From a virus (taxonomy: Duplodnaviria; Heunggongvirae; Uroviricota; Caudoviricetes): 36,833 nucleotides of DNA. The notes beneath the pieces are model-generated. The model ran no database searches, was not told where the DNA came from, and saw only the letters and a list, made by a program, of their open reading frames with translations. Position 1 is the first letter of the stretch. Each line of letters starts with the position of its first letter. The position numbers and the translations under genes are program-made. The stretch lies in IMG/VR virus record IMGVR_UViG_2571042372_000004, positions 1 through 36,833 of that record; one strand, written 5' to 3'. Of this stretch, positions 5,294 through 32,767 are shown one piece after another.

Positions 5294-7741
5294 TTAACCG
5301 TCATGCATCATGCTGGCACGGGCACGCGCACGTTTATCCCGCTCGTATTTTTCGAGCGCATCCTGTAACTGGCGGTCAAGCTGTGTCCCCGGCGCAGTAC
5401 CACCCGTCAGGCTGATGTGATATTCGTTTTTACTCTGGTCCACATAAGAGCGGCCAGCCGGTGCCGTGACTGGCTGATAAGCCTGATAGCCTGCATAAGA
5501 GCTGGTCGCCGGAATATAACCACCGGTGCCATACGTGGCGGCATGAGTTCTGGCGGCGGTCTGGTCAAGTGTGTCTGACTCTTTGTTGATGACCCCGAGC
5601 TTTTCCAGTACCCAGTCAATACCGCTGCGCAGTTTGTTGAACGCATTAAGCGGCAGCATCAGCGCGTCAGCCAGTGCCTGCCCGAACATGACGCCCGTAT
5701 CACGGCAACGGTTCAGGGTGTCCTGGGTGGCTTTGACCGGGGCAATCAGGTTTTTAAACCACTGCCACGCGGCCTGTAACTTTTCGCCCAGCCAGTCAAA
5801 CACCGGCTTAAGTGGCGTGAACAGTTCCCCCACCGGCGCAAATGCCGCTTTCAGCCCTTCAACCACACCGCCAAAGAATGCGCTGACAGGCTCCCAGTAT
5901 TTACGGATAAGCAACGCCCCGGCGACAATGGCGGCCACCACGGCCACAACCGGCCAGCTAATCGCCCCGATGGCCGTCATAACAGCACTACCAACCGTCG
6001 TGAAGATTGCCCCCATTGCGCCTGCTGCCGCGATAATGGCATTGATGCCGGTGATAACCGGCCAGGCTACAAGACCAATGGCACCGATGATGCCAGTAAG
6101 CGCCAGCGCGCCACCGACAATGAGGCCGATGGTTGACGCCAGTGATTTGTTTTTCTGGATCCAGCCGTCGAGTTTTAACACATACTTTGTGGCCGTCTGA
6201 GTGAGCTTACGCAGTGCGCCTTCCTGCTGGTCAAACAGGTCAGTCCCCACCGCCTCATAAGCGGACTGAAACTCCTTAAAGTCACCGCCGAGGTTGTCCT
6301 GCATGATATTTACCAGTTCTGCGGTCTTTCCGTCTGAGGCTTTAAACGCAGCGGTCAGTTTGTCCAGCTTTCCGGTTGACGCGGCAGTCATCAGCACAGC
6401 GGCGGCTGAGCTGGCCTCCTCCCCGAAAATGGTTTTCATGTATTCGGCCTGCTGGGCAGTACCGAGCCGGTTTTTCTCAAAACTGGCCTGCATTTCTTTC
6501 AGAATGGTAAATACTGGTCGGGTGTTTCCCTTGCTGTCTGAGGTTTTCACACCAAGCTCTTTCAGTGCATCCCACGCTTTTCCCGTCGGTGCCTGCAGGC
6601 GGCTTAACACGGCACGGCTTCCCGTCCCCGCCATTGAGCCTGTGATTTTTGCATCATGCAGCGCCCCGACCATTGCGGCGGTTTCTTCAATGCTGACACC
6701 GGCATTTTTTGCCACAGGTGCGGCATAGGTCAGCGCATCGCTCATGCCGTCAAAATCGGCGGCGGTTTTGTTCATCGTCATGGAGAGAACATCCCCGATA
6801 TGAGCGACCTTATCGTTTGAAAGCTGAAAGGCGGATTTCATCCCCATCAGCAGGGCGGCGTTTTCTTCCATCGTGCGGCGGTTCGCCAGCGCCATATTCA
6901 GCGTGACCGGCGTTGCCGCCTGAATGGCATCAACATCCCCACCCGCTTTCGCGATGATTATCTGTGCACCGGCCGCATCATCCGCCGAGGCGGCGGTATT
7001 GTCGCCGAGCTGGCGCGCCTGTTTGCGTAGTGCGGTCATTTCGGCGGAGTCTTTTGCCACTCCGAGCACGGCCTGCAATTCTGAGTTTTTCTGCGCAAAC
7101 TCATAACCGGGCATCAGCAACTTAACTCCGGCCATCGTTCCCGCCGCCGCAATCCCCACACCGGCAGCGCCCACTGAGGCCATATTTCCGGCCAGTTCCT
7201 TTCCGGCCTGATAACGCTGTTTTACTGCGTTAAGTTTTGCCTGTTGTGCACTGACACGCGCCAGTGCGTCACGCTGACGGTTAAGCTGTGCGGTGGTTTC
7301 ACTGATACGGTTTTTCAGTCCCTGCTCATCATGTGCAAGATTGCGGGTATTAATTCCCACAGCGGCCAGTTCCCGCTGCTGGCGTTTAACGGAATCCGTC
7401 AGGCGGTTATATTTCGCCTGTAAGTCCTCCGCCGCACGCTTTGCGGATTCCAGCACTTTCGCCTGAGCACGTGTCGGACGTTCGGTATTTTTAAACTGTG
7501 TGGCAAGGGCTTCGGCTTCCTGCCGCGCCTTTTCAAGTGCATGACCAGTCACGGCGAGCTGTGCACTGGTCTTGCGAAATCCCTCAATACGGGACGCCTG
7601 ACCGTTCAGCTCGCGCAGTGATTTTTGTGTTTCCCGGATATCCCCCGACAGCGATTTGCTCGCTGTGCGGATGGATTTAAACGGGCGGGATGCCTGGTCA
7701 ACAGCCCTGAGCAATACCTGTAATTTTACATTGTTACTCAT
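5294..7741 (-). CDS. T: tail tape measure protein gpT
   Basis: 815-aa ORF rich in Ala/Gly with coiled-coil N-terminal region and hydrophobic central segments, typical of tape measure proteins. Lies between E/E' and U. Confidence 0.9.
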   Translation of the reverse strand: MSNNVKLQVLLRAVDQASRPFKSIRTASKSLSGDIRETQKSLRELNGQASRIEGFRKTSAQLAVTGHALEKARQEAEALATQFKNTERPTRAQAKVLESAKRAAEDLQAKYNRLTDSVKRQQRELAAVGINTRNLAHDEQGLKNRISETTAQLNRQRDALARVSAQQAKLNAVKQRYQAGKELAGNMASVGAAGVGIAAAGTMAGVKLLMPGYEFAQKNSELQAVLGVAKDSAEMTALRKQARQLGDNTAASADDAAGAQIIIAKAGGDVDAIQAATPVTLNMALANRRTMEENAALLMGMKSAFQLSNDKVAHIGDVLSMTMNKTAADFDGMSDALTYAAPVAKNAGVSIEETAAMVGALHDAKITGSMAGTGSRAVLSRLQAPTGKAWDALKELGVKTSDSKGNTRPVFTILKEMQASFEKNRLGTAQQAEYMKTIFGEEASSAAAVLMTAASTGKLDKLTAAFKASDGKTAELVNIMQDNLGGDFKEFQSAYEAVGTDLFDQQEGALRKLTQTATKYVLKLDGWIQKNKSLASTIGLIVGGALALTGIIGAIGLVAWPVITGINAIIAAAGAMGAIFTTVGSAVMTAIGAISWPVVAVVAAIVAGALLIRKYWEPVSAFFGGVVEGLKAAFAPVGELFTPLKPVFDWLGEKLQAAWQWFKNLIAPVKATQDTLNRCRDTGVMFGQALADALMLPLNAFNKLRSGIDWVLEKLGVINKESDTLDQTAARTHAATYGTGGYIPATSSYAGYQAYQPVTAPAGRSYVDQSKNEYHISLTGGTAPGTQLDRQLQDALEKYERDKRARARASMMHDG

Positions 7742-8748: not shown

Positions 8749-9939
8749 TTAATTGCTGTTAACCGAGGTGACCAGATTTGCCAGGTATTTATCGGTAATA
8801 CGCTGGCGCAGGGTCAGGTTTTCGAGAGGAGGCACCGGGGTATAGTCGTAGTCGATATACAGTTTTCCGGCCTTGAGGGTTTCCGCATCGTTGGATTCTT
8901 CGCTGAACCAGCAGGTCGCATCCACGATATAGCCGTTTGTTTTCAGCTCACGGAATTTGGCATTGATGCCGTCAACGATGTCGCGAATCAGCGTTGCGGT
9001 GATGGGCTTGTCCACCGCCCACATGTGCGCCTCAGCCATCGTATCGGCCAGCACCTGCGCGGTGCGGGTGTAGTTTTCAAAGAGGAACAGCGGGTCATCA
9101 GAGCAGGTACGGTTACCCCAGAAGCGGAAACCGTCACGGCGAATCAGCGTTGTGACGCCTGACTCATTCAGCAGGTCAGCATCGGTGCCGGACTCCTGCA
9201 AATCCCAGAATACAGATGCGCTGATGCCGGTAACACCGTTCACCCCGACGTTGGACAGCGTTTTATGCCAGCCCTGCTCCTGGTCGATTCTGGCACGCAG
9301 ACCCAGCGCACGGGCGGTGGCATACGCGGTGGCGGTGGTACTGGCAACCGTATCCCATGCGAGGAAATCCGGCCAGATGACCATCAGCTCACGCTGGCTG
9401 AAATTCTGACGGTAGGCTTTCACCTCGGAAATGGTTTTACAGCCCCATGCGCTGATATACCCGAAAGCGCGCAGCTTCTGACAGACTGATGCCAGTGCAA
9501 CAGCCACCTCTTTGGTGTCCAGTCCCGGCACGCCGAGAATACGCGGTTTAACACCGGTTACCGACTCCGCCGCCAGCAGGGCTTTCAGTCCGGTGTACTG
9601 ACCGTTTTCGTCGGTGGTGCCGATGATATTGGAAACGGTCTGCGCGAGTTTCGTTTCCTCGTCGTCGCCGGTGCCGTCTTCCACACGCACGACAACGGTG
9701 ACCGGTTTTGACTGGTCGGCGATGGCCTGCAACGATGCCGCCAGCGTGCCTTTTTTACCAGCCTTTGCAATTGCGCTCTGCACATTGGTAATCAGCACCG
9801 GTTTATTGATGGGGAAGGTTTCCGCATCCGCATCGCTGGCCGTGCAGACCATGCCGACAATGGCTGTGGATACGGTGGAAATGACGCGGGTGCCGTCGTT
9901 AATCTCCAGCACCTGCACGCCGTGATGATAGTCACTCAT
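8749..9939 (-). CDS. FI: contractile tail sheath protein gpFI
   Basis: 396-aa ORF; size and synteny of P2 FI. Confidence 0.9.
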   Translation of the reverse strand: MSDYHHGVQVLEINDGTRVISTVSTAIVGMVCTASDADAETFPINKPVLITNVQSAIAKAGKKGTLAASLQAIADQSKPVTVVVRVEDGTGDDEETKLAQTVSNIIGTTDENGQYTGLKALLAAESVTGVKPRILGVPGLDTKEVAVALASVCQKLRAFGYISAWGCKTISEVKAYRQNFSQRELMVIWPDFLAWDTVASTTATAYATARALGLRARIDQEQGWHKTLSNVGVNGVTGISASVFWDLQESGTDADLLNESGVTTLIRRDGFRFWGNRTCSDDPLFLFENYTRTAQVLADTMAEAHMWAVDKPITATLIRDIVDGINAKFRELKTNGYIVDATCWFSEESNDAETLKAGKLYIDYDYTPVPPLENLTLRQRITDKYLANLVTSVNSN

Positions 9940-10030
9940 CCGTTTAACTCCGTGGTTAATGGGTGCAACTATTTTCCATTGGGTAGTACATGAGACGCTA
10001 TTTGACCTGGCTGGTCAGTGGATGAAACAA

Positions 10031-10062
10031 CAGATAAAGAAAAGGCGGGCAATCTGCCCGCC
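10031..10062 (-). terminator. putative rho-independent terminator downstream of the 230-aa cargo gene
   Basis: Perfect 8-bp stem GGCGGGCA/TGCCCGCC (10044..10062) with a T-rich tract on the minus strand immediately after it (plus-strand AGATAAAGAAAA 10031..10043). Confidence 0.45.
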
Positions 10063-10198
10063 TGTCCTGATTTGTACACACTCATTTTCCGACTGACAAT
10101 TTACATAGCCAAAACGCTATCAAATCTGACTGCCTGTTTTGAGCGAAGAGGAACCTGAGATTGTGGTATGCTAATTTATGGGGAGCAGGTCAATTGTA

Positions 10199-10891
10199 TT
10201 AGTTATCTTTTTGCCTTTCTTTATCCCATTTCTTTACAGTGGTCTGATACCACTCTTCACGTGCTCGTTGTTCCTCTGCTCTGTCACTTGAATTATAGTT
10301 GTCTGTTTTAATTTTTTTGCTTCCCTGGGAAATCGGCCTCCAGTCTTCTCTAATCTTTTTCATCTGCTCAGCTATCTGTGTCATTGGACTCCTTGCACCT
10401 AAGTAGCTAACCCCCTCGAAAGAAGCCATATCATAAGAATACTCATTCCGCTCTCTTTCAGTTGAGCCCGGCTGTTTAGACCAGCTAATACTAACAGAAT
10501 AAACTTGATCTTTAATCTGGTCATACTTACAAAGACTGCTGTTGAGGGAATGGCCGTTTTTCAATACGCTAACCTTGCTAAATGGTATACCTTTATTTTT
10601 TCTATGTTCTGCATTAACCAGTGGGGGATTAAATCCGACTTCAATATCATAGGCTGGGGCATTTCCGGTATTAGCAATATTGATATCAAAATAAAAAGCA
10701 GCCCAAGAATTTGGTTCAAGAGTCACAACGACATGAGGTTGAACTGATGCGTCAACCATCCTTTTTGTCTCGTCTGCTAATAGCCTTGTTACTCTCCACA
10801 AGAAAAATGTAGCAACTGCTGTTAGCAATGCTGCCAAAGCGGAGATAAGTGTACTTACTGTGTTTATATGCTCTGCGATAAATTCGATCAT
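10199..10891 (-). CDS. membrane-anchored hypothetical protein (cargo gene at the P2 Z/fun position)
   Basis: 230-aa ORF, AT-rich. One predicted N-terminal transmembrane helix (VSTLISALAALLTAVATFFLW) followed by basic residues (RVTRLLADETKR), suggesting a cytoplasmic body. Highly charged C-terminal tail. No family recognised. Confidence 0.7.
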   Translation of the reverse strand: MIEFIAEHINTVSTLISALAALLTAVATFFLWRVTRLLADETKRMVDASVQPHVVVTLEPNSWAAFYFDINIANTGNAPAYDIEVGFNPPLVNAEHRKNKGIPFSKVSVLKNGHSLNSSLCKYDQIKDQVYSVSISWSKQPGSTERERNEYSYDMASFEGVSYLGARSPMTQIAEQMKKIREDWRPISQGSKKIKTDNYNSSDRAEEQRAREEWYQTTVKKWDKERQKDN

Positions 10892-11379
10892 GAGTTGTCC
10901 TTGGGGGCGTACTAATTGTTTTCAATACTAAAATAGCGCCGGGCTTGAAAAATTGCACACTTATGGTTCGATTTACCTCAACAGTTAAGGCTTCTACTTC
11001 CCCCATGCACCTCACCCAGCCCAAGACGGTATGAGGTCTGACAAAGAACTTCCTGACACTTGAAAACGAGGCAACGGCTAGGGTTTCTCGTAGGGCAAGG
11101 ATTGAATACGAAGCCTGTATATTGCTCCGCAAACGCTGCTGAGGGCAGTTTAAATGTTGGGCGTTTATGTAGCCTTTCACTCACCAGCATGAGTTCAATG
11201 TCTGTGAGTTACCGACAACAATATAAAGAGGGTGGCATCATATATCCAAGCTAGAGTCAAATCCTCCAACTGGTTTTATGATCAGTGTCAATTGTTTGAT
11301 TATTGAACGTTTACGAAGCAGCACGGGAGCCATATAACTAATGGGCAGGTATAAGCCTGTATCACGAGGAATCAGTAAA

Positions 11380-11559
11380 ATGGCTGATGATAAGACCAAA
11401 ATCGGTACCCCTGACAATGATTTAATAAGTATCAAACAGGATTACGAGAGACGTGATTGGGCTGAAAAGTTTGGAGTTAGCGAGGCCAAACTTGTTCAAG
11501 CCGTACAGGCTGTAGGTCATTCGGCTAAGAAAGTACAGGCATGGCTTAAAGACCATTAA
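11380..11559 (+). CDS. small DUF3606-like protein
   Basis: Start set at ATG 11380 with GAGGA RBS 9 nt upstream (the ORF track begins at 11341). 59-aa product contains DWAEKFGVSEAKLVQAVQAVGHSAKKVQAWL, which resembles the DUF3606 signature as I recall it. AT-rich. Confidence 0.6.
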   Translation: MADDKTKIGTPDNDLISIKQDYERRDWAEKFGVSEAKLVQAVQAVGHSAKKVQAWLKDH

Positions 11560-11565
11560 TATATG

Positions 11566-11589
11566 AGCGCCTTTCTAGGCGCTTTTTTC
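11566..11589 (+). terminator. rho-independent terminator after the DUF3606-like gene
   Basis: Hairpin AGCGCC-tttcta-GGCGCT followed by TTTTTT, 7 nt after the stop codon. Confidence 0.6.
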
Positions 11590-11611
11590 TTTGTCCTTTG
11601 GGAGATGATTT

Positions 11612-11890
11612 ATGGCTAATAATTTATTTATTACTTACGACCTCATTAAAACGAAAGATTATGCGGCTGTGTATGATGCAATTAAATCTTTAGGAAATTG
11701 GGCTTTAACAACTGAATCGAACTGGTATGTTAACTGTAGTTACTCTGCCGAGGATGCAGCCAAAATTGTGAGGGCGGTCATGGATAGTGATGATAAGCTT
11801 ATTGTTGTAGACGCAACCAATAACTCAGCTTATTGGTACAATCTCTCAGATGAAGTTAGTAACCAAATTCTGACTGAGTGGAACAAGTAA
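11612..11890 (+). CDS. hypothetical protein (92 aa), cargo gene at the Z/fun position
   Basis: 92-aa ORF, AT-rich, with GGGAGATGA-type RBS upstream. No recognisable family. Followed by a strong hairpin. Confidence 0.6.
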   Translation: MANNLFITYDLIKTKDYAAVYDAIKSLGNWALTTESNWYVNCSYSAEDAAKIVRAVMDSDDKLIVVDATNNSAYWYNLSDEVSNQILTEWNK

Positions 11891-11892
11891 TT

Positions 11893-11915
11893 AAAGGGGG
11901 TGGACAGCCCCCTTT
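11893..11915 (+). terminator. stem-loop or putative terminator after the 92-aa gene
   Basis: AAAGGGGG-tggacag-CCCCCTTT perfect 8-bp stem, 2 nt after the stop codon. The U-run is weak, so this may be a bidirectional or processing hairpin. Confidence 0.4.
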
Positions 11916-12110
11916 AATTCAGAAACTATCATGATTGAAACATTAAATATACTGGGTTAATTCTTTCATCCTTGCTCCCTTGCTATATGTCCTGAAAGCG
12001 TCCTTTTTAGCCTTCTGCTCAGTATATCCGGTAATGGCACAGAGCGGACTGCCAGATTAGGCTTTACTCTGTGCCATAGATATGTAAGCTCACACCAGAG
12101 TTCATACAAC

Positions 12111-12638
12111 TTATTGCGGCATTTCCGGCCATTCAGGATTTGCAGGATCCACACGACTGACCAGAACGCTGTAGCGTTCCCATGCCTCCAGTCGACTGCG
12201 CTCCTCATCTGTTGCCATATTCAGCCTGACAGCGCGCTCCAGTGGCAAAATCACGGATTCGGCTTCGGAAAGCAAAGTTGCCTTTTGTGATTCTGCCAGT
12301 TGCTGCTGTTCGTCTGCCGTATAAATCCGCTTAATCACTGCACCATCCTTAAACATCCATTTACCTGAGTCATCAGCACGCCGGTTGGCAGTAATATCAG
12401 GAACCTCAACAACGCTAAAACCTTCAGGATTAAGCGTTGAAGCATCTCTGGTGATAGCGACAATAATATTATTTTCATCGTAAACAATCTTTATTGTGTC
12501 TGGCTGAAAGTTCTTCACTTCCTCATACCAGTTTTTTCCGTCCTCAGAGTAAAGCCAGATAACTCCGTGTTTCTTTGTTAACTCATACTGTTCCAGTGTT
12601 TTAGCATTACCCGCTTTTATGTTCTTTAAGTGCATCAT
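12111..12638 (-). CDS. G: tail fibre assembly protein gpG
   Basis: 175-aa ORF immediately downstream of H; P2 G size and synteny. Confidence 0.85.
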
Positions 12639-17317: not shown

Positions 17318-18073
17318 TTAGTTGTAGCACTTCTCTATAATCTTCATACACTCCTCATGAGCTAAATCATGGCTGTCAAATTCTTTATTAAAAAAGAAGA
17401 AAAACGCCTTCTTAACCTGAGGCATTTCAATAAAAATAAATTCATCAACCTTATGAAAGAAATGAAAACTCTTGTTTGATGTTTCAAAAACCATCAAAGA
17501 ATTATGTTTTTTATCCTTCCATTTCGACATCAGATTGCGTCGCGATTTTCGTATAATCCTGAAGACATCCCCCGGCGTCGTATCGACATTCCCCCAAAAC
17601 ATTGCAACCGGGAAGTTTGCAAGGAACGGGATATAATCACCACCTTTATACCTGAGAAAGCGGTTCCGCAAATCCATTAATTGCAACTTAAAACCCATGT
17701 ATTGCAACCACCATATGATGCAATCATACTCATAATCTGTTAACTCCTCTCCCCTCTTTTCCGTAAGAAATTTCTTCAGGTTATACTCAAACACTCCCAG
17801 CAAATCAGAATTGCACACTCTGCATGCTGGTACAGTGGCTTTAATGTAATGAGTTGACTGATTATTCTTTTTATTAATTAAAGATTTTTCAGCATTTGAC
17901 TCAAAGGCCCACTGAGGAATAATGTGCTCACGAGTAATATCGTCAGAACTCCCGCATAACACACATATATCAGCATTATGGTCAGCAATAATACAATCCA
18001 TAACTTTCTTTTGAGAGTGCTTTACTCTTTTTCTCAAAATAGAAAACTTTTCATCCATAAACACCCGTCTCAT
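17318..18073 (-). CDS. HNH nuclease-domain protein (AT-rich moron between S and V, the P2 orf30 position)
   Basis: 251-aa ORF, very AT-rich. N-terminal HNH pattern CVLCG...DITREHIIPQW...N...ACRVCN (two CxxC pairs flanking a conserved His). Start ATG overlaps the gpS stop (ATGA), implying translational coupling within the late operon. C-terminal ~150 aa unassigned. Confidence 0.75.
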   Translation of the reverse strand: MRRVFMDEKFSILRKRVKHSQKKVMDCIIADHNADICVLCGSSDDITREHIIPQWAFESNAEKSLINKKNNQSTHYIKATVPACRVCNSDLLGVFEYNLKKFLTEKRGEELTDYEYDCIIWWLQYMGFKLQLMDLRNRFLRYKGGDYIPFLANFPVAMFWGNVDTTPGDVFRIIRKSRRNLMSKWKDKKHNSLMVFETSNKSFHFFHKVDEFIFIEMPQVKKAFFFFFNKEFDSHDLAHEECMKIIEKCYN

Positions 18074-24443: not shown

Positions 24444-26216
24444 ATGACCATCACCACAGACACCACTCTTTTACACGACCCGCGTCGTCAGGCGGCGCTG
24501 CTGTACTGGCAGGGATTTTCCGTGCCGCAGATTGCCGCCATGTTGCAGATGAAACGCCCGACGGTGCAGAGCTGGAAACAGCGCGACGGCTGGGACAGCG
24601 TTGCCCCCATCAGCCGTGTCGAAATGAGTCTGGAAGCGCGGCTGACCCAGCTCATCATCAAACCGCAGAAAACCGGCGGTGATTTCAAGGAAATTGACCT
24701 GCTGGGACGCCAGATTGAACGACTGGCACGGGTAAACCGCTACAGCCAGACCGGCAACGAGGCAGACCTTAATCCGAACGTCGCTAACCGCAACAAAGGC
24801 GGGCGGCGCAAACCGAAAAAGAATTTTTTCAGTGACGAGGCCATCGAAAAGCTGGAGCAGATTTTCTTTGAGCAGTCTTTCGATTATCAGTTGCACTGGT
24901 ATCGCGCCGGGCTTGAGCACCGCATCCGCGATATCCTGAAATCCCGCCAGATTGGCGCGACGTTTTATTTTTCCCGCGAGGCGCTGCTGCGCGCCCTGAA
25001 AACCGGTCATAACCAGATTTTTCTGTCGGCCAGTAAAACGCAGGCGTATGTGTTCCGTGAATACATCATCGCCTTTGCCCGTCTGGTTGATGTTGACCTG
25101 ACCGGTGACCCGATTGTCCTGGGCAATAACGGCGCAAAACTGATTTTTCTCGGCACCAACTCCAACACCGCGCAGAGCCATAACGGCGACCTGTACGTCG
25201 ACGAGATTTTCTGGATCCCGAATTTTCAGGTGCTGCGTAAGGTGGCATCAGGTATGGCCTCACAGAGTCACCTGCGATCGACCTATTTCTCCACCCCGTC
25301 CACGCTGGCGCACGACGCCTACCCGTTCTGGTCGGGTGAACTGTTCAACCGGGGACGCGCCAGCGCCGCCGAACGCGTGGAAATCGACGTCAGTCATAAC
25401 GCCCTTGCCGGTGGGCTTCTCTGTGCGGACGGCCAGTGGCGGCAGATTGTCACCATTGAGGACGCCCTGAAAGGCGGCTGCACGCTGTTCGACATTGAGC
25501 AGCTCAAACGCGAAAACAGCGCCGACGATTTTAAAAACCTGTTCATGTGTGAATTTGTTGACGACAAGGCGTCGGTGTTCCCGTTCGAGGAGCTGCAACG
25601 CTGTATGGTCGACACGCTGGAAGAATGGGAAGACTATGCGCCGTTTGCCGCCAATCCGTTCGGCTCCCGCCCGGTATGGATTGGTTACGACCCGTCACAC
25701 CGTGGCGACAGCGCCGGATGCGTGGTGCTGGCACCGCCGGTGGTGGCCGGTGGCAAATTCAGAATACTTGAGCGTCACCAGTGGAAAGGCATGGATTTTG
25801 CCACTCAGGCGGAATCCATCCGCAAACTCACCGAAAAATACAACGCCGAATACATCGGTATTGATGCAACCGGCCTCGGTGTCGGCGTGTTCCAGCTCGT
25901 GCGCTCGTTCTATCCCGCCGCGCGCGATATCCACTACACGCCGGAAATGAAAACCGCAATGGTGCTCAAGGCAAAAGACGTTATTCGCCGTGGCTGTCTG
26001 GAATATGACGTCAGCGCCACCGACATCACCAGCTCGTTTATGGCTATCCGCAAGACCATGACCAGCAGCGGACGCAGCGCCACCTATGAGGCCAGCCGCA
26101 GCGAGGAAGCCAGCCACGCCGACCTCGCCTGGGCGACCATGCACGCCCTGTTAAATGAGCCACTCACCGCCGGTATCAGCACCCCGCTGACATCCACCAT
26201 TCTGGAGTTTTACTGA
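24444..26216 (+). CDS. P: terminase ATPase (large) subunit gpP
   Basis: Start set at ATG 24444 (GAGGT RBS), giving 590 aa beginning MTITTDTTLLHDPRRQAALLYWQGF...; the ORF track start at 24414 is a TTG. Divergent from O, as in P2. Confidence 0.9.
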   Translation: MTITTDTTLLHDPRRQAALLYWQGFSVPQIAAMLQMKRPTVQSWKQRDGWDSVAPISRVEMSLEARLTQLIIKPQKTGGDFKEIDLLGRQIERLARVNRYSQTGNEADLNPNVANRNKGGRRKPKKNFFSDEAIEKLEQIFFEQSFDYQLHWYRAGLEHRIRDILKSRQIGATFYFSREALLRALKTGHNQIFLSASKTQAYVFREYIIAFARLVDVDLTGDPIVLGNNGAKLIFLGTNSNTAQSHNGDLYVDEIFWIPNFQVLRKVASGMASQSHLRSTYFSTPSTLAHDAYPFWSGELFNRGRASAAERVEIDVSHNALAGGLLCADGQWRQIVTIEDALKGGCTLFDIEQLKRENSADDFKNLFMCEFVDDKASVFPFEELQRCMVDTLEEWEDYAPFAANPFGSRPVWIGYDPSHRGDSAGCVVLAPPVVAGGKFRILERHQWKGMDFATQAESIRKLTEKYNAEYIGIDATGLGVGVFQLVRSFYPAARDIHYTPEMKTAMVLKAKDVIRRGCLEYDVSATDITSSFMAIRKTMTSSGRSATYEASRSEEASHADLAWATMHALLNEPLTAGISTPLTSTILEFY

Positions 26217-27250
26217 TGAGCAAGAAAAAAGGGAAAACACCGCAACCTGCGGCAAAAAAAATGACCGCCAGCGCCCCGAAAATGGAGGCATTCACCTTTG
26301 GTGAGCCGGTGCCGGTACTCGACCGCCGTGACATTCTGGATTACGTCGAGTGCATCAGTAACGGCAGATGGTATGAGCCACCGGTCAGCTTTACTGGTCT
26401 GGCAAAAAGCCTGCGTGCTGCCGTGCATCACAGCTCACCGATTTACGTCAAACGTAATATTCTGGCCTCGACATTTATCCCGCATCCGTGGCTTTCACAA
26501 CAGGATTTCAGCCGCTTTGTGCTGGATTTTCTGGTGTTCGGTAATGCGTTTCTGGAAAAGCGTTACAGCACCACCGGTAAGGTCATCAGACTGGAAACCT
26601 CACCGGCAAAATATACCCGCCGTGGCGTGGAAGAGGATGTTTACTGGTGGGTGCCGTCCTTCAACGAGCCGACAGCCTTCGCGCCCGGCTCCGTGTTTCA
26701 CCTGCTGGAGCCGGATATTAATCAGGAGTTGTACGGCCTGCCGGAATATCTCAGCGCCCTTAACTCTGCCTGGCTGAATGAGTCGGCCACGCTGTTCCGC
26801 CGCAAGTATTACGAAAACGGCGCACATGCCGGATACATCATGTACGTCACCGATGCCGTGCAGGATCGCAACGATATCGAAATGCTTCGCGAAAACATGG
26901 TGAAGTCGAAAGGCCGCAACAACTTTAAAAACCTGTTTCTCTATGCCCCGCAGGGGAAAGCTGACGGCATTAAAATTATCCCCCTCAGTGAAGTGGCGAC
27001 GAAAGACGATTTTTTTAATATCAAAAAAGCCAGCGCCGCTGACCTGCTGGACGCGCACCGCATCCCCTTTCAGTTGATGGGAGGCAAGCCGGAGAACGTC
27101 GGGTCGCTGGGAGATATTGAGAAAGTGGCAAAGGTCTTTGTCCGCAATGAGCTTATCCCGTTACAGGACAGGATTCGGGAAATAAACGGCTGGCTCGGTC
27201 AGGAGGTCATCCGCTTTAAAAACTACTCACTGGACACTGACAACGGCTGA
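26216..27250 (+). CDS. Q: portal protein gpQ
   Basis: 344-aa ORF; P2 gpQ size and synteny. Start overlaps the P stop. Confidence 0.9.
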   Translation: MSKKKGKTPQPAAKKMTASAPKMEAFTFGEPVPVLDRRDILDYVECISNGRWYEPPVSFTGLAKSLRAAVHHSSPIYVKRNILASTFIPHPWLSQQDFSRFVLDFLVFGNAFLEKRYSTTGKVIRLETSPAKYTRRGVEEDVYWWVPSFNEPTAFAPGSVFHLLEPDINQELYGLPEYLSALNSAWLNESATLFRRKYYENGAHAGYIMYVTDAVQDRNDIEMLRENMVKSKGRNNFKNLFLYAPQGKADGIKIIPLSEVATKDDFFNIKKASAADLLDAHRIPFQLMGGKPENVGSLGDIEKVAKVFVRNELIPLQDRIREINGWLGQEVIRFKNYSLDTDNG

Positions 27251-27767: not shown

Positions 27768-29987
27768 ATGGAACTTAAATTAAAGAATATAACCAGCTAT
27801 AAGAAAGATAGCTTCACGACTCTTAATCTCTCAAAAAAAATTAATATACTTTATGGTCACAACGGTTGTGGAAAATCAACCATATCTAATTATTTCTATA
27901 ATCCAAATAACACGGACTACAAAGAATGCGAATGTCCTTTCATAGATACTTTTCGCCTATTGGTTTATAATACTAAGTTTGTTGAGGATAATTTTTATAA
28001 TGCAAAAGAGCAAAAAGGAGTATTCACTTTAAGTAAGGAAAATGCTGACATTGAAAAAGAATTGTTGGAAAAAGAAGCTATAAGACAAGACCTACTTACA
28101 AAATACAAAGATAAAAAAAACGTTATTGAGCGTTTAATTAAAGATAAAAACAATAAAGAAAATGAATATATTGATTTAATATGGAATAAAGCAGAACCTT
28201 TTAGATCATCTGACTTAAAGAACTTGATGAAAGGTCAGTTAGGAAGCAAGAGATCATTTTATGAGCAAGTTAAAAAAGCCCCTCAAACCACTGACGTTAA
28301 CATCGAGTCACTTGCTCAAGAATATAGTATTCTTTTAAAGAACAAAGATAAATTCACTGCATCAATTACACCTTTAGAAAAATATATCATTTCAGAAAAA
28401 GATAAAGAATCTTTATCCACTCCGATTATAGACTCAAGTAATAGCTATTTGTCAGAAACAATTAAACAACTTCAAAACCTTGACTGGGTGAAAAAAGGGA
28501 AGGAATTATATTTAAATGGCACATGTTGCCCATTCTGCCAAGAAGACACTATTAAAGACAAATTTTTAGAAGCAATTGAATCTATCTTTGATGATAGCTA
28601 CTCCAAGAAAGTTGACCAAATACGCATTATCAGATCGTCTTATGAATCCGCTACCATAGATAATTTAAGAAAAATAAAACAAGAGATTTCATCTTGTGAA
28701 TTAATCACCTCAAAAGAAAAAGATATAACATCATCTCATATAGCGTTATTAGAGGAAATAGCAAACAAAAACTTAAAATTGATGTTAGATAAAATCAATA
28801 ACCCATCTATATCTATTATTTTGGAATCCAATAGCGACCTTGAAGCAAAGGTAGTTGATAATATAGCAGAGTACAACAATAGAATTAAAGAAATAAATAT
28901 TAAAGTCAAACAATTTAAGGATAGTGAAAAGTCTATACGTTACAAAATATGGGGAGCAATAAGAGAATTATGCAACGCTGAGTTTGAAGCTTTCTCAAAA
29001 TATGAGAATGACTATAAAATCATTTATGAACAATATCAACTTGAATTAAATACCATAAAAGAACAAGGAGATAACAATAGCAAAAAGATCAAAGAGCTAC
29101 GCGATCAAATATCTAACATTGATGCAACCATAGATTCTATAAATCAACGTCTAAAATTATTAGGAATTTATGGTTTTAGCATAAAAAAACACACTGAGAG
29201 CAATGATAAATATATTATATCACGTTCTGAAAACACAACAGATAAAGATGTATACAGATCTCTTAGCGAGGGTGAAAAAACTTTAATTACCTTTCTCTAC
29301 TTTCTGGAATGCTGTAAAGGTAAGACAGATAAGAATGATACGGATATGCGAGATGTATTTATCGTTATTGATGATCCAATATCCAGCCTCTCTCAAAATT
29401 ATGTGTACGATATTGCTTCAATAATTCACCATGAAATAATCAACAATAACAAAGCAGTAAAGAAAACATTAATACTCACACATAACCTTTATTTCTTTCA
29501 TGAACTTATCAAATTAGCTCCTAGAAGCAAAGAAGATAGAACATTCAAGCGTGATTATTATCTTGGACGAGTAACAAAAAATGAATATAGCATAATTACA
29601 GAAATAGAGAAAAAGAGCATTCAGAATGAATACCAGTCCCTATGGCAAGTATTAAAAGATGCGAAGGATGGAAGGGTAAATAAAGTTATAATACCTAACA
29701 TCATGAGAAATATACTGGAATACTACTTCGCATTTGTTCATAGAACGGATGCATTACAGACAGAGTTAAATAAACTTGCTAGCGATGATAAGAATAATGA
29801 TTTTAGAGCATTTTATAGATACATTAATAGAGGTTCCCATTCAGATGCAGTTAATATCACAGACATGGGAGATATATCTCCAGAGAAATATATGGAGCAA
29901 CTAAAAACCATTTTTCGTATGACTGGTGATGAAAAACATTATTTGAAAATGATGGACGAAGAGGAAGAGAAAACCGTTACCGCTTAG
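27768..29987 (+). CDS. ABC/Rad50-like ATPase with coiled-coil CxxC insert and C-terminal putative nuclease domain (RloC/PrrC-like); defence candidate at the tin/old position
   Basis: 739-aa ORF, extremely AT-rich, GAGG RBS. Walker A GHNGCGKST; ABC signature LSEGEK; Walker B DVFIVIDDP; H-loop-like LILTHNLYF. A long K/E-rich predicted coiled coil between Walker A and signature carries CPFC (zinc-hook-like). C-terminal segment has R-x3-E (RNILE) plus downstream His residues, reminiscent of the PrrC/RloC anticodon-nuclease triad. Confidence 0.85.
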   Translation: MELKLKNITSYKKDSFTTLNLSKKINILYGHNGCGKSTISNYFYNPNNTDYKECECPFIDTFRLLVYNTKFVEDNFYNAKEQKGVFTLSKENADIEKELLEKEAIRQDLLTKYKDKKNVIERLIKDKNNKENEYIDLIWNKAEPFRSSDLKNLMKGQLGSKRSFYEQVKKAPQTTDVNIESLAQEYSILLKNKDKFTASITPLEKYIISEKDKESLSTPIIDSSNSYLSETIKQLQNLDWVKKGKELYLNGTCCPFCQEDTIKDKFLEAIESIFDDSYSKKVDQIRIIRSSYESATIDNLRKIKQEISSCELITSKEKDITSSHIALLEEIANKNLKLMLDKINNPSISIILESNSDLEAKVVDNIAEYNNRIKEINIKVKQFKDSEKSIRYKIWGAIRELCNAEFEAFSKYENDYKIIYEQYQLELNTIKEQGDNNSKKIKELRDQISNIDATIDSINQRLKLLGIYGFSIKKHTESNDKYIISRSENTTDKDVYRSLSEGEKTLITFLYFLECCKGKTDKNDTDMRDVFIVIDDPISSLSQNYVYDIASIIHHEIINNNKAVKKTLILTHNLYFFHELIKLAPRSKEDRTFKRDYYLGRVTKNEYSIITEIEKKSIQNEYQSLWQVLKDAKDGRVNKVIIPNIMRNILEYYFAFVHRTDALQTELNKLASDDKNNDFRAFYRYINRGSHSDAVNITDMGDISPEKYMEQLKTIFRMTGDEKHYLKMMDEEEEKTVTA

Positions 29988-30234: not shown

Positions 30235-32502
30235 TTAATTAAATCCCGGCCACTCATCATTTACCGGATACCTGAAGTTTACCCCCTCATAATTTACGGT
30301 TGCCCCACGCGCCAGCGCCTCAAGCTCCCATCGCTGAGGCCTGATACCGTTCTGACCAAGGTCAACGCGGATACGGGGGATTTGCATTCGTTCCGACCGG
30401 GTCAGTCTGGCCGAAGGCGCAATTTCATGCGGTTTTAACGGGCTTCCGTTTCTTTGCTGACGATTTGGTGTTCTCAGTTCGTGTTTTAATGCCCCCCTGA
30501 GCGCCCTCACGACATCCGGGTCATTCCATTCGATAACACCGTCATCGACCAGATTAAGCACGGCTGCGGCATGTTCAGAAGGTGTGGGAGCCGTTAACGA
30601 AGTATCACTGCCGGTGAACTTTCCACAGTTATTGACAGGACTCCGAGGCGCGGCGATGCCGCTTTTTAAAGTCAAAGGCTCAACGACCGGAACTTTCGGC
30701 ACAATGCGCCAGTCCGTCGTTCTGGTGATATGAATATGACGCGCGCCGAGATGCGGCGCGTAAATGCCGACCACTCTCTCGACTTCTTCCTCGTACTCGT
30801 TAACGTCATCCGACGGGCTACGGGCAACCCTGACAGTCTGACAATCGCGCGGGACATTTGCCCCACCCTGCGCGCTGATATACAACGCAAAATCACCACT
30901 GTCTGCGGCAGCGCGAGCAGCCTCGACGCGTTCGTCAAACTCATCAGCAATACTGACGCCGCGAGGCAATTTGCGTAGTTCACGGTAAGCCCCCATTGTC
31001 GGCAGTCCAACCGTTTTAAATTGCGGGATGCGCCACGTTGACGCCCATGCGGTAACAGCCGCGGCAGTATCTTTAAGCGGCTTACCGGTATCGTTATCGA
31101 GCTGACCATCCAGTGCATAGCCGTCGATATTTTTTGAAATGTATTTCGCGATATATCCCGCAGCACCGCCCCGGTTAAGGTGCTTTGCCTGAAAACGGTT
31201 TCGCGCTGCTCCTCTTTCGTCGCCATCCTCTTTGAGCGCATAGCGACGCATGATTTCGATAATCTGGTTACGCTGGCGCGAATTACAAAAAAGCATCATA
31301 TGCCAGTGCGGCGTTCCGTCGTGGTGTGGCTCGACGACACGCAAACCGTAGACCTGTAAATCATTATCCTTGAATGCCGTGCGCATCAGGCTCCAGATGC
31401 GGCAGAGATAACGCTGCGCATCCTTTGGATTAAATGCCTCATCGTTCCAGCCGTGATTAAGCTGAACGGTTTTACTTTCGCCTTTTCTGACCTGACGAGT
31501 CGGGTGATACTTTGACGGCGCAGTCAGCGTGATAAACATCCCCACATCACCCTCTGCGGCGGCGTAACGCTCAATACCGGCAATGGTGTTCATCAGCTCC
31601 ATCCGGCGAATTTCAGGATTAGAAATACTGCCCATCACCTTACTGATAAGGTCGATGCGCTCGCCGGTTTCCCTGTTTTCAAGGTCACACGATTTAAGAA
31701 ATTCCAGATTTGCCTGGCGGCGCGCACGCACATCACGAATGGCGTGTTTACTGGCATAAGGAGAACGGTCTTTATTGACCTCCCCGACAGCTATCAGTAA
31801 CGCTTCATGCCAGCGCATACGCTGGCCTTTAAGCTGATGAGTCCACCACTCATCGTTAAACAGACGGGCAATGGCAGAATATGCCTGCCTCGTGGTCATC
31901 TGCCCTTTACGGTATTTTTTCCAGTAGAGAGGGGAAATATTGAAAGCACGTGCAGCGCCAGCAACATGACCATAGAGGTGAGCCTGCGCCTCATCCGTAA
32001 ACAGCGATTCTTTTTCGCCATGCGCATCCACCCAGGCATCGCTGAGTTCCTCATACATCATGAAAAGCTGCGATGAGATACGGGCAGCAAACTTTTTCAG
32101 CTCCTTGTCATTCATTCCCGGCAGGCGCGCATAGTGGTCACGCTCTGCCAGAAACAGCAACGACGCGTCGGTGTTCATTTCATGGCGCTGATTCACACGC
32201 TCAATGCGCGGCCATAAACGACGCTGAAAAGTGGATGTGAGGAAATAAAACCCGTGTACCGGGCTTTTATTGCGCCGGATGTAGTCATAGCGTGAAGTAA
32301 ACAGCGAGCGCAAAAAGTAAGGCAGGCGGTTAATCGTGGATAAAACACCTTGCACCTGACGCATCTCGTCACGTGTAAGGGGTCTTTCGCGCCCGACGGC
32401 CTCGCGTGGCGCGTTCCATGCATAAGCACCGGTAAACGCCTTACCGGTGCCTGCAGCAAATGCTGAAGGAGGGACAAAACGCCCGGAGGCTTTAACGGCC
32501 AT
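30235..32502 (-). CDS. A: replication initiation endonuclease gpA (rolling-circle)
   Basis: 755-aa product with start set at the internal ATG (MAVKASGRFVPP...); the ORF track extends 14 codons upstream. P2 gpA size and synteny. Confidence 0.9.
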   Translation of the reverse strand: MAVKASGRFVPPSAFAAGTGKAFTGAYAWNAPREAVGRERPLTRDEMRQVQGVLSTINRLPYFLRSLFTSRYDYIRRNKSPVHGFYFLTSTFQRRLWPRIERVNQRHEMNTDASLLFLAERDHYARLPGMNDKELKKFAARISSQLFMMYEELSDAWVDAHGEKESLFTDEAQAHLYGHVAGAARAFNISPLYWKKYRKGQMTTRQAYSAIARLFNDEWWTHQLKGQRMRWHEALLIAVGEVNKDRSPYASKHAIRDVRARRQANLEFLKSCDLENRETGERIDLISKVMGSISNPEIRRMELMNTIAGIERYAAAEGDVGMFITLTAPSKYHPTRQVRKGESKTVQLNHGWNDEAFNPKDAQRYLCRIWSLMRTAFKDNDLQVYGLRVVEPHHDGTPHWHMMLFCNSRQRNQIIEIMRRYALKEDGDERGAARNRFQAKHLNRGGAAGYIAKYISKNIDGYALDGQLDNDTGKPLKDTAAAVTAWASTWRIPQFKTVGLPTMGAYRELRKLPRGVSIADEFDERVEAARAAADSGDFALYISAQGGANVPRDCQTVRVARSPSDDVNEYEEEVERVVGIYAPHLGARHIHITRTTDWRIVPKVPVVEPLTLKSGIAAPRSPVNNCGKFTGSDTSLTAPTPSEHAAAVLNLVDDGVIEWNDPDVVRALRGALKHELRTPNRQQRNGSPLKPHEIAPSARLTRSERMQIPRIRVDLGQNGIRPQRWELEALARGATVNYEGVNFRYPVNDEWPGFN

Positions 32503-32767
32503 ATGAGCCAAAAGCCTCTGAACAACGCCTGCTGAGTTGCTCAACCTGCGCGTTTAAATCAGCAAAAGACTTTGCGCTTCCGGTCAGAATATCGTGATGC
32601 ATCAGGCCGGAAACGAGCTGGCTTAATTTCGGATAATAACCAACCACCGCCAGCCATTCCTGACCGGCGTTTTTACCGCTTTCCGCTCTCTTTTTCTCGT
32701 GGAGAATAAACTGAAAGCTGTCACTGGTAACGACATAACGTTCGCCAATTTCAATACGAATACTCAT
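32492..32767 (-). CDS. small phage protein (P2 orf83 position)
   Basis: 91-aa ORF in the early operon between the TraR-like gene and A; position equivalent to P2 orf83. Confidence 0.6.
   Translation of the reverse strand: MSIRIEIGERYVVTSDSFQFILHEKKRAESGKNAGQEWLAVVGYYPKLSQLVSGLMHHDILTGSAKSFADLNAQVEQLSRRCSEAFGSYGR

Follow-up and report, generated by a model that had tools for sequence, protein, structure and literature searches.

The 36,833-nucleotide stretch of DNA analysed here in full (the window; IMG/VR virus record IMGVR_UViG_2571042372_000004, Caudoviricetes) contains a P2-like prophage in which the Z/fun cargo slot, between the genes FI and G, is filled by an accessory cassette of three small genes, called A, B and C in the following. 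As far as its sequence relationships indicate, this cassette is very probably a young mosaic of independent genes that move as one block. It is also probable, if less certain, that the overall explanation of the cassette is a mosaic Z/fun cargo of independent genes acting in conflicts between mobile elements; judged from its location, a defence role is plausible.

The preliminary description of this DNA had proposed a low-GC island of three genes at the P2 Z/fun position, and the data bear this out. Three intact open reading frames (ORFs), A on the minus strand and B and C on the plus strand, lie between P2 FI and G in the ORF list, and the G+C content (GC) is 0.38–0.47 (~40%) over positions 10000–12100 against 0.54–0.60 in the neighbouring sheath and tube genes. 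The Pfam families of the two flanking genes agree with this position, and so do the backbone breakpoints: the flanks of the cassette align with P2, Wphi and many P2-like prophages that hold other cargo in the slot, and in the alignment with Wphi and with Shedu- and HNH-bearing prophages the common backbone stops at ~10146–10150 and resumes at ~12024–12035. The cassette is 1.9 kb in size, with its right limit at ~12041–12050. As to its membership of the Z/fun hotspot, it sits in the FI–G position and is replaced there by other cargo in related genomes. The features of this region are as follows:

8749–9939, left flank, tail sheath gene (Phage_sheath_1, Pfam)
10140–12050, no strand assigned, whole accessory cassette, made of A, B, C and an integrase stub, filling the P2 Z/fun cargo slot
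10199–10891, minus strand, gene A, ORF of 230 aa, RefSeq name DUF8453
11380–11559, plus strand, gene B, 59 aa, DUF3606 (Pfam PF12244; RefSeq WP_001406733)
11612–11890, plus strand, gene C, 92 aa, stand-alone protein with a predicted Cas2/VapD fold
11940–12035, minus strand, dead 3' stub of a tyrosine integrase gene, its last ~35–42 codons (tblastn with the integrase of island L014)
12111–12638, right flank, gene of a tail-fibre assembly protein (Caudo_TAP, Pfam)

The divergent arrangement that had been described was also found, with A facing away from B–C across a spacer of 450–490 bp. One variant of the cassette (L041, L075, L158, L159) has an insertion of ~313 bp in this spacer, at a point corresponding to ~11117–11119 of the window, which indicates that the length of the A–B spacer is unconstrained. 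No credible Rfam match was detected in 9900–12200.

The origin of the right half of the cassette could be traced to integrative islands. The segment 11269–12038 of the window matches, at ~79% identity, the end of E. coli integrative islands (L014, L016) that lies next to the integrase; in these islands B is 96.6% and C 71–76% identical to the genes of the cassette, and B–C abut a full-length tyrosine integrase of the DUF6538 type. In the cassette, what follows C is the integrase stub, which is 62% identical to the integrase of L014 over 42 residues (tblastn, E = 1e-10). All the copies of the cassette hold the stub alone, with no full integrase; taken together with the match to the islands, this suggests that the right half is a captured B–C–'int fragment to which A was joined.

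Moreover, the assembled block is not confined to the P2 slot of E. coli. At 94–97% nucleotide identity, and with the same first base (TGAGCGAAGAG...), it was found in three further settings, so that the cassette copies are:

window 10140–12050, Z/fun slot of an E. coli P2-like prophage (also phage R18C)
L159 1529–3755, divergent P2-like contig
L226 4799–6753, Rac-like lambdoid prophage of strain BCE049, between a DUF977 gene and hok
L075 4536–6755, Pantoea leporis chromosome, between budABC and glyoxalase/WYL genes

The copy in the lambdoid prophage is present in six complete E. coli genomes. When the shared ends are compared with the P2 breakpoints, the non-P2 copies extend ~10 bp into the P2 backbone at the left end and ~10–25 bp at the right. 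Neither target-site duplications nor convincing terminal repeats were found at the ends of the cassette, which has no working integrase of its own. The 'inverted repeats' annotated in an earlier deposit of this region (AJ512682, 'Bacteriophage P2-EC53 proviral Z-region', 99.2% identical to the cassette), which correspond to 10065–10155 and 12023–12135 of the window, were considered and rejected; they are not complementary to each other, and their alignment score, 14, is what shuffled sequences give on average (13.9). In E. coli SA31-1 (L227 3071–6144) the same lambdoid slot holds instead genes for TetR, adenosine deaminase, a non-canonical purine NTP pyrophosphatase and SIR2, a sign that the interval from the DUF977 gene to hok could be a second hotspot for phage cargo.

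Whether the three genes belong together depends on the distance at which they are compared. All the copies in which A is at least ~92% identical carry the three genes in the same order, and such near-identical copies were seen in ~100 complete E. coli genomes, in 19 contigs of IMG/VR and in 13 from metagenomes. The scan of A loci was based on one genome per species and gave 72 loci; in these, B and C occurred only in the Pantoea leporis copy of the cassette, and no family of neighbours was found in more than 5 loci. A metagenome scan added ~60 divergent loci, none of which had B or C beside A. Overall, none of the ~130 divergent A loci has B and a single one has a C-family gene. The latter belongs to Pseudomonas machongensis (L107), where an A homologue of 44% identity (5977–6699) is immediately preceded by a distant C-family gene (5688–5945), with a VVSYDL motif and a hidden Markov model (HMM) match of E = 1e-13; it is the sole A–C pairing outside the cassette among these loci, and the pair is followed by an insertion sequence (IS) fragment and by the gene of a 909-aa ATPase. 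From the side of C the picture is similar, as B accompanies one and A none of the 18 non-cassette C loci in IMG/VR, and some C-family genes have no small upstream gene at all (L025, L059–L061). Guilt by association gave nothing for A: among the 130 neighbouring proteins of the divergent loci, which are encoded by mobile-element genes, 2–3 methyltransferase genes and housekeeping genes, no recurrent partner was identified. The co-occurrence of the three genes, by which the preliminary description could be checked, is thus seen in every near-identical copy and is not kept by the divergent homologues of A (~130 loci), B and C; co-occurrence over divergent homologues and contexts, the generic sign of a multi-gene defence system, was not observed. 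By this comparison, the cassette is not a conserved three-component system, and its genes appear unrelated in origin.

The three genes were then considered individually. Gene A codes, as previously described, for a 230-aa protein on the minus strand with one N-terminal transmembrane (TM) helix, a single hydrophobic segment at about residues 12–32, and a charged C-terminal tail, the last 75 residues containing 16 K/R and 13 D/E. The protein matches phrog_11802 (E = 3e-147) and has no match in Pfam, NCBIfam or PADLOC. Copies 100% identical to A are labelled 'DUF8453 domain-containing protein' in RefSeq, while our Pfam search returned no match for A, and the name DUF8453 is not mentioned in the literature searched. 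Homologues with 30–50% identity are distributed in alpha-, beta- and gammaproteobacteria, where they adjoin integrases, resolvases, mobilisation genes, a Mob/Prim-Pol element and IS elements. In their alignment the TM segment, TAVATFFLWRVT, is strikingly conserved, and a beta-rich domain follows in which an NTGNA motif can be recognised. Around the helix, the mean K+R is 0.24 in the N-terminal flank and 3.6 in the C-terminal flank (29 homologues), and this asymmetry, by the positive-inside rule, would place the N-terminus outside and the remainder of the protein in the cytoplasm. The AlphaFold2 model (mean predicted local distance difference test, pLDDT, of 82) shows a helix at 2–49, seven strands in 54–154 and helices in 161–229. 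A is therefore predicted, by alignment and model, to be a single-pass inner-membrane protein of N-out/C-in topology, with a cytoplasmic immunoglobulin-like beta-sandwich and a charged helical tail. The ratio of nonsynonymous to synonymous substitution rates (dN/dS) of A is 0.16–0.41.

A diverged copy of A is also present in E. coli Nissle 1917 (L027 5908–6480) and in ~460 other E. coli genomes. It is ~75% identical at the nucleotide level and ~190 aa long, starts just after the residues of the TM helix, and in Nissle 1917 lies in an island near fec, beside an AbiJ-NTD4 gene and abutting transposase fragments; it is probably a remnant truncated by an IS element. The adjacency to AbiJ-NTD4 was considered as evidence for a defence role of A and discounted, as this copy is devoid of the TM helix and sits beside transposase fragments.

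For gene C, the preliminary description had reported no recognisable family, which holds for the curated sequence profiles and not for the predicted fold, which is Cas2/VapD-like, nor for the PHROG classification, in which C belongs to phrog_1090. This family comprises 2,529 clusters at 50% identity, mostly of proteins of 90–100 aa, and is common in phages and also found in chromosomal islands. No Pfam or NCBIfam family was above threshold: against the Cas2 profile PF09827, C scored 12.7 bits (cutoff 23.8), and the matches of other members of the family to the same profile, obtained for 15 of 31, were all sub-threshold as well (best E 1e-3). The identity to E. coli Cas2 is 8%, and the fold is a generic ferredoxin-like one, shared at similar Z by many unrelated proteins. 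The first beta strand (3–10 in the model) ends in (S/T)-Y-D-L, which puts D10 at the end of beta-1, where the catalytic Asp is expected; 31 close homologues all have D10, and over 46 representatives of the 50%-identity clusters the position is occupied by D or E. S36, located between the model strands 29–34 and 37–42, is invariant in close homologues and S/T more widely, and D61 is invariant throughout the family. It has been reported that VapD catalysis uses an Asp and a Ser (PMC11980593), and that BPSL1038 has a D11(X20)SST motif (PMC10491678); on the basis of alignment and model, D10 and S36 of C may correspond to the VapD Asp/Ser and to the BPSL1038 motif. Since the curated profiles remained below threshold, we describe C as Cas2/VapD-like by modelled fold and catalytic-type residues and do not call it Cas2 or VapD. 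With regard to a CRISPR-associated Cas2 (CRISPR, clustered regularly interspaced short palindromic repeats), there is no adjacent cas1 and no CRISPR repeat array in 9940–12200; the neighbours are the DUF3606 gene, gene A and tail genes. Domain fusions in the C family gave no functional hint. When C was compared with the alleles of the islands, dN was 0.16–0.26 and synonymous sites were saturated; the alleles of C, like those of B, are old. In some integrative elements (L028 4814–4942, L048 2814–2942, L020 4777–4944) the C-family gene is preceded by a basic protein of 42–55 aa (MAKKTVVRSAITGQFV...), unrelated to DUF3606 and belonging to no Pfam family, which replaces it with the same spacing.

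Gene B opens at 11341 as an ORF of 72 aa; the form annotated in RefSeq has 59 aa and starts from the ATG at 11380, preceded at 8 nt by the ribosome-binding site GAGGAA. Its DUF3606-like character, noted earlier, was substantiated by the Pfam match to PF12244 (E = 4e-18, 65.3 bits for a cutoff of 24.3, full 54-position model covered), and B belongs to phrog_10779. Inspection by eye suggests that it is probably a small alpha-helical domain, and no solved structural relative was found by sequence search. B is under very strong purifying selection (dN/dS ~0–0.03). A recent recombinational replacement of B, which the higher identity of B (96.6%) than of C (76%) to the island alleles had brought to mind, was rejected, given a dS of 0.41–0.58 with a dN of 0.014 in comparison with the island alleles; these values indicate an old and highly constrained gene. 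B homologues occur in Yersinia ruckeri (77%), Burkholderiales (61%) and Pseudomonas (55%), none of them with A or C. In Pseudomonas (L072 3094–4539) the DUF3606 genes sit amid KGG, hemerythrin, Mn-catalase and CinA genes, and in an E. coli island (L014 4282–4944) the gene preceding B codes for an 82-aa protein that looks KGG-like, with a sub-threshold Con-6 match in Pfam (E = 0.0096).

The transcription and translation signals identified in and around the cassette are listed below:

10043–10063, minus strand, terminator-like hairpin 136 nt past the stop codon of A, within the P2 backbone (terminator scan)
10898–10902, minus strand, ribosome-binding site of A, AAGGA (sequence reading), coinciding with the one annotated in AJ512682
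11220–11248, minus strand, sigma-70-like promoter for A, TGGATA-17-TATATT (promoter scan)
11310–11338, plus strand, putative B–C promoter, TTTACG-17-TATAAC (by eye)
11565–11594, plus strand, intrinsic terminator between B and C, an eight-pair stem and then TTTTTCTTTGT
11893–11914, no strand assigned, G/C-rich hairpin after C (terminator scan)

The promoter of A, at 11248–11220, was the sole promoter-like site reported by the scan of 9900–12200, and its -10 element matches the minus_10_signal annotated in AJ512682; it implies a leader of ~320 nt. The predicted RNA fold of the A leader and of the B leader was no better than that of shuffled sequences (z = 0.19 and -0.69, respectively). The putative B–C promoter was missed by the scan because the last base of its -10 element is C. 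No promoter is visible between the terminator of B and C, hence C would be expressed by read-through of that terminator. The hairpin after C is likely a bidirectional terminator, and in the E. coli islands L014–L019 the same junction separates C from the convergent full-length integrase. The claim that each gene has its own terminator was only partly upheld: B (11565–11594) has one and C (11893–11914) a likely one, and the hairpin downstream of A, which lies inside the conserved P2 flank, is not A's own.

All three genes are under purifying selection, with dN/dS of 0.0–0.4 among the cassette variants, and a sequence search against solved structures gave nothing below E = 0.04 for A, B or C. 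As for known defence systems, the models used were those of PADLOC-DB 2.0 (2023 library). A had no match, the best for B was E = 0.027 and the best for C was Cas2_II at E = 0.019; in line with the preliminary description, none of the three proteins fits a model of this release.

In the explanation that we favour, gene A, with its own promoter, would have been joined to a B–C–'int fragment of an enterobacterial integrative island, and the assembled block would then have passed as a whole from one prophage hotspot to another and to a site in a chromosome. A, B and C would be genes expressed by the prophage and involved in conflicts with other mobile elements. A, on its own, might bring about exclusion or abortive infection at the membrane, with its sensing part in the cytoplasm and its conserved TM helix as the means of action; we favour this role because A is solitary on mobile elements, its TM helix is more conserved than a mere anchor would demand, and its globular part is predicted to face the cytoplasm, where phage components appear. 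C could be a small protein, VapD/Cas2 in type, that cleaves nucleic acids. B is probably co-transcribed with C through an attenuating terminator, and may modulate C or, equally, may be an unrelated small protein of the stress type. That at least one gene of the cassette is anti-phage we regard as possible, though less likely than not.

Several observations weigh against this explanation. The neighbourhoods of divergent A homologues contain mobile-element genes and a few methyltransferases, with no clear enrichment in defence genes; the intact spread through four contexts would also suit a functionally linked unit, and the C-family/A tandem of Pseudomonas machongensis is independent of the cassette. 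Furthermore, the match of C to the Cas2 profile is sub-threshold and its proposed catalytic residues were placed by alignment and model, and the genes neighbouring DUF3606 in Pseudomonas and in the E. coli island give hints of stress physiology and not of defence.

A bolder version of the same explanation, to which we give only tentative credit, is that A or C is a new kind of anti-phage factor and that the cassette is moved by an undescribed recombination mechanism. In that case, A (DUF8453) would be a single-gene immunity protein, anchored in the membrane and sensing in the cytoplasm, of a family that mobile elements have spread through Proteobacteria, and C would represent a family (~2,500 clusters) of phage-borne, stand-alone nucleases with the Cas2/VapD fold. 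The C family could then be an extant representative of the protein pool that presumably supplied CRISPR with Cas2.

Among the alternatives, the one that survives best, although we consider it unlikely, is that the cassette is lysogenic-conversion or stress-fitness cargo with no anti-phage role, in which, for instance, A is a membrane-associated factor altering the physiology of the envelope and B a small general-stress protein. The depositors of AJ512682 named ORF1, which is gene A, 'putative lysogenic conversion protein', the Z/fun slot has been called 'mixed purpose' (bioRxiv 10.1101/2024.10.15.618418), and the lack of defence enrichment around A would agree with such a role, as would the company of the Pseudomonas DUF3606 genes (KGG, hemerythrin, Mn-catalase, CinA) and the sub-threshold KGG-like neighbour in the E. 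coli island. However, the cassette is found mainly in phage cargo slots where it alternates with validated defence genes, the homologues of A are accompanied by genes for integrases, resolvases and mobilisation, and the modelled C has a nuclease-type fold with catalytic-type residues.

In line with the preliminary description, which saw in the island a candidate superinfection-exclusion or abortive-infection module, it could also be supposed that A, B and C form one multi-component anti-phage system, in which a membrane effector is joined by a small regulator and by a sensor or effector that resembles a nuclease. This would account for genes that are always together in near-identical copies, for a block that moved intact into four contexts and is present in two phage cargo hotspots, and for the P. 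machongensis C-family gene directly upstream of a 44% identical A homologue. We judge it quite unlikely, as the co-occurrence is lost below ~90% identity (no B and one C in ~130 divergent A loci), and the homologues of B and C are mostly without the other two genes. Moreover, the genes are arranged in two divergent transcription units with an internal terminator between B and C, and the dead integrase stub is carried along, as happens in the block transfer of linked DNA and not when a system is selected for.

A narrower proposal, with A unrelated to the rest, is that B–C is a type II toxin-antitoxin or addiction pair, made of a VapD-like nuclease toxin and a DUF3606 antitoxin encoded upstream, which stabilises its carrier or aborts infection. 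The layout of a small gene followed by a 92-aa gene of Cas2/VapD fold mirrors that of vapX-vapD, and the pairing of VapD toxins with unrelated antitoxins is documented (PMC11980593); in addition, B and C are kept together in two contexts, between which B is 96.6% and C only 71–76% identical, and the positions that are catalytic in VapD retain in C an acidic residue and a Ser or Thr. On the other hand, most C-family genes are without B, some having no small upstream gene and others the basic protein of 42–55 aa, B homologues occur without C, and a strong terminator separates B from C. Known antitoxins of VapD are SH3-like barrels (VapX, VapY) or VapD-like (VapW) (PMC11980593), and B, probably helical by eye, would differ from the SH3-like barrels of VapX and VapY; the pair is thus very unlikely in our opinion. 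Finally, a counter-defence role of C, as a Cas2 look-alike that interferes with spacer acquisition by host Cas1–Cas2, is highly improbable, for, common as the C family is in phages, the identity between C and E. coli Cas2 is a mere 8%, the ferredoxin-like fold of C is generic and found at similar Z in many unrelated proteins, its conserved catalytic-type residues suit an enzyme and not a decoy, and the family is also present in chromosomal islands.

Returning to the favoured explanation, of independent genes in a mosaic cargo block, the cassette has to be seen in relation to the other cargo of P2-like prophages. That the Z/fun slot is a hotspot for cargo and defence genes is established (PMC9519451; bioRxiv 10.1101/2024.10.15.618418), and in other P2 prophages it holds a Shedu nuclease, an HNH endonuclease, Wphi orf44 or a SMEK-domain protein (RefSeq product name). 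In the window, two further regions are of interest in this respect:

17318–18073, minus strand, ORF of 251 aa in a low-GC patch (0.44), no Pfam or PADLOC match
27768–29987, plus strand, AAA_13 ATPase of 739 aa, 30% GC, in the second P2 cargo slot (old/tin position)

The second slot lies between the portal gene Q (26216–27250) and the replication gene A (30235–32544). For the 739-aa ATPase, PADLOC gave a match to the candidate family PDC-S06 (E = 5e-253), and the C-terminal part of the protein is PrrC-like (E = 3e-14); by the PDC-S06 match, the prophage already holds a candidate defence gene at the old/tin position. The 251-aa ORF presumably occupies the position of P2 ORF30. It resembles a 741-bp ORF of unknown function reported at that position in R18C (PMC6823313).

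The sequence of the cassette and its location were known already; in this sense the island is less novel than the preliminary description had suggested. The record of the P2-EC53 Z-region, AJ512682, which assigns no function, was deposited with Nilsson, Karlsson and Haggard-Ljungquist 2004. In that deposit the copy of B (L001 1473–1646) is split across reading frames, for which reason only ORF1 was annotated; as B is intact in all the other copies, the frame break is probably a sequencing error, a pseudogene being the alternative. The cassette is 99.6% identical to that of phage R18C, also in the FI–G slot, where two short plus-strand ORFs at the fun(Z) position, one of them DUF3606, have been mentioned as morons of unknown function (PMC6823313); they correspond to B and C. 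The three RefSeq accessions and the term 'DUF3606' are absent from the supplements of Rousset 2022 and Vassallo 2022. Near-identical A and near-identical B–C are each present in ~100 of 5,426 complete E. coli genomes, of which 1,730 (roughly a third) have P2-type flanks. What our analysis adds is the fold predicted for C, the predicted topology of A and its spread, the integrase stub, the mosaic origin and the four contexts.

The two cargo slots of P2-like prophages have already yielded several validated defence systems, and the cassette, with ~100 complete genomes, is one of the commoner uncharacterised occupants of Z/fun. If A or C protects against phages, a function would be available for two widespread orphan families, DUF8453 and phrog_1090, and a stand-alone protein of the Cas2/VapD fold would join the phage-encoded conflict genes. 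If neither protects, position in a hotspot would prove to be, by itself, weak evidence of defence, and linked cargo genes need not form a system.

In comparison with known systems, the P2-EC53 Z-region and the morons of R18C are the same DNA in the same slot. The other Z/fun cargo (P2 fun, Shedu, HNH, SMEK and the PD systems of Vassallo) shares with the cassette the slot, the low-GC moron character and the alternation between genomes, but no sequence or profile similarity. The enterobacterial integrative islands (L014–L019, L049) have the same B–C–integrase order; in these, however, an entire integrase is present and A is missing, whereas the cassette keeps only the integrase stub. Single-pass membrane proteins for superinfection exclusion or abortive infection are known as prophage morons, for example HK97 gp15 and the lactococcal Sie2009. 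By analogy, A resembles them in being small, with one predicted N-terminal TM helix, and in being a separately transcribed moron in the tail-gene region of a temperate phage; unlike them, A has its bulk predicted in the cytoplasm and shows no detectable homology to them, so that the likeness is one of architecture only. Within the VapD/Cas2/BPSL1038 superfamily, C differs in lacking both a VapX, VapY or VapW partner and cas1/CRISPR, and its D61 is an invariant Asp in addition to those described for the members of that superfamily.

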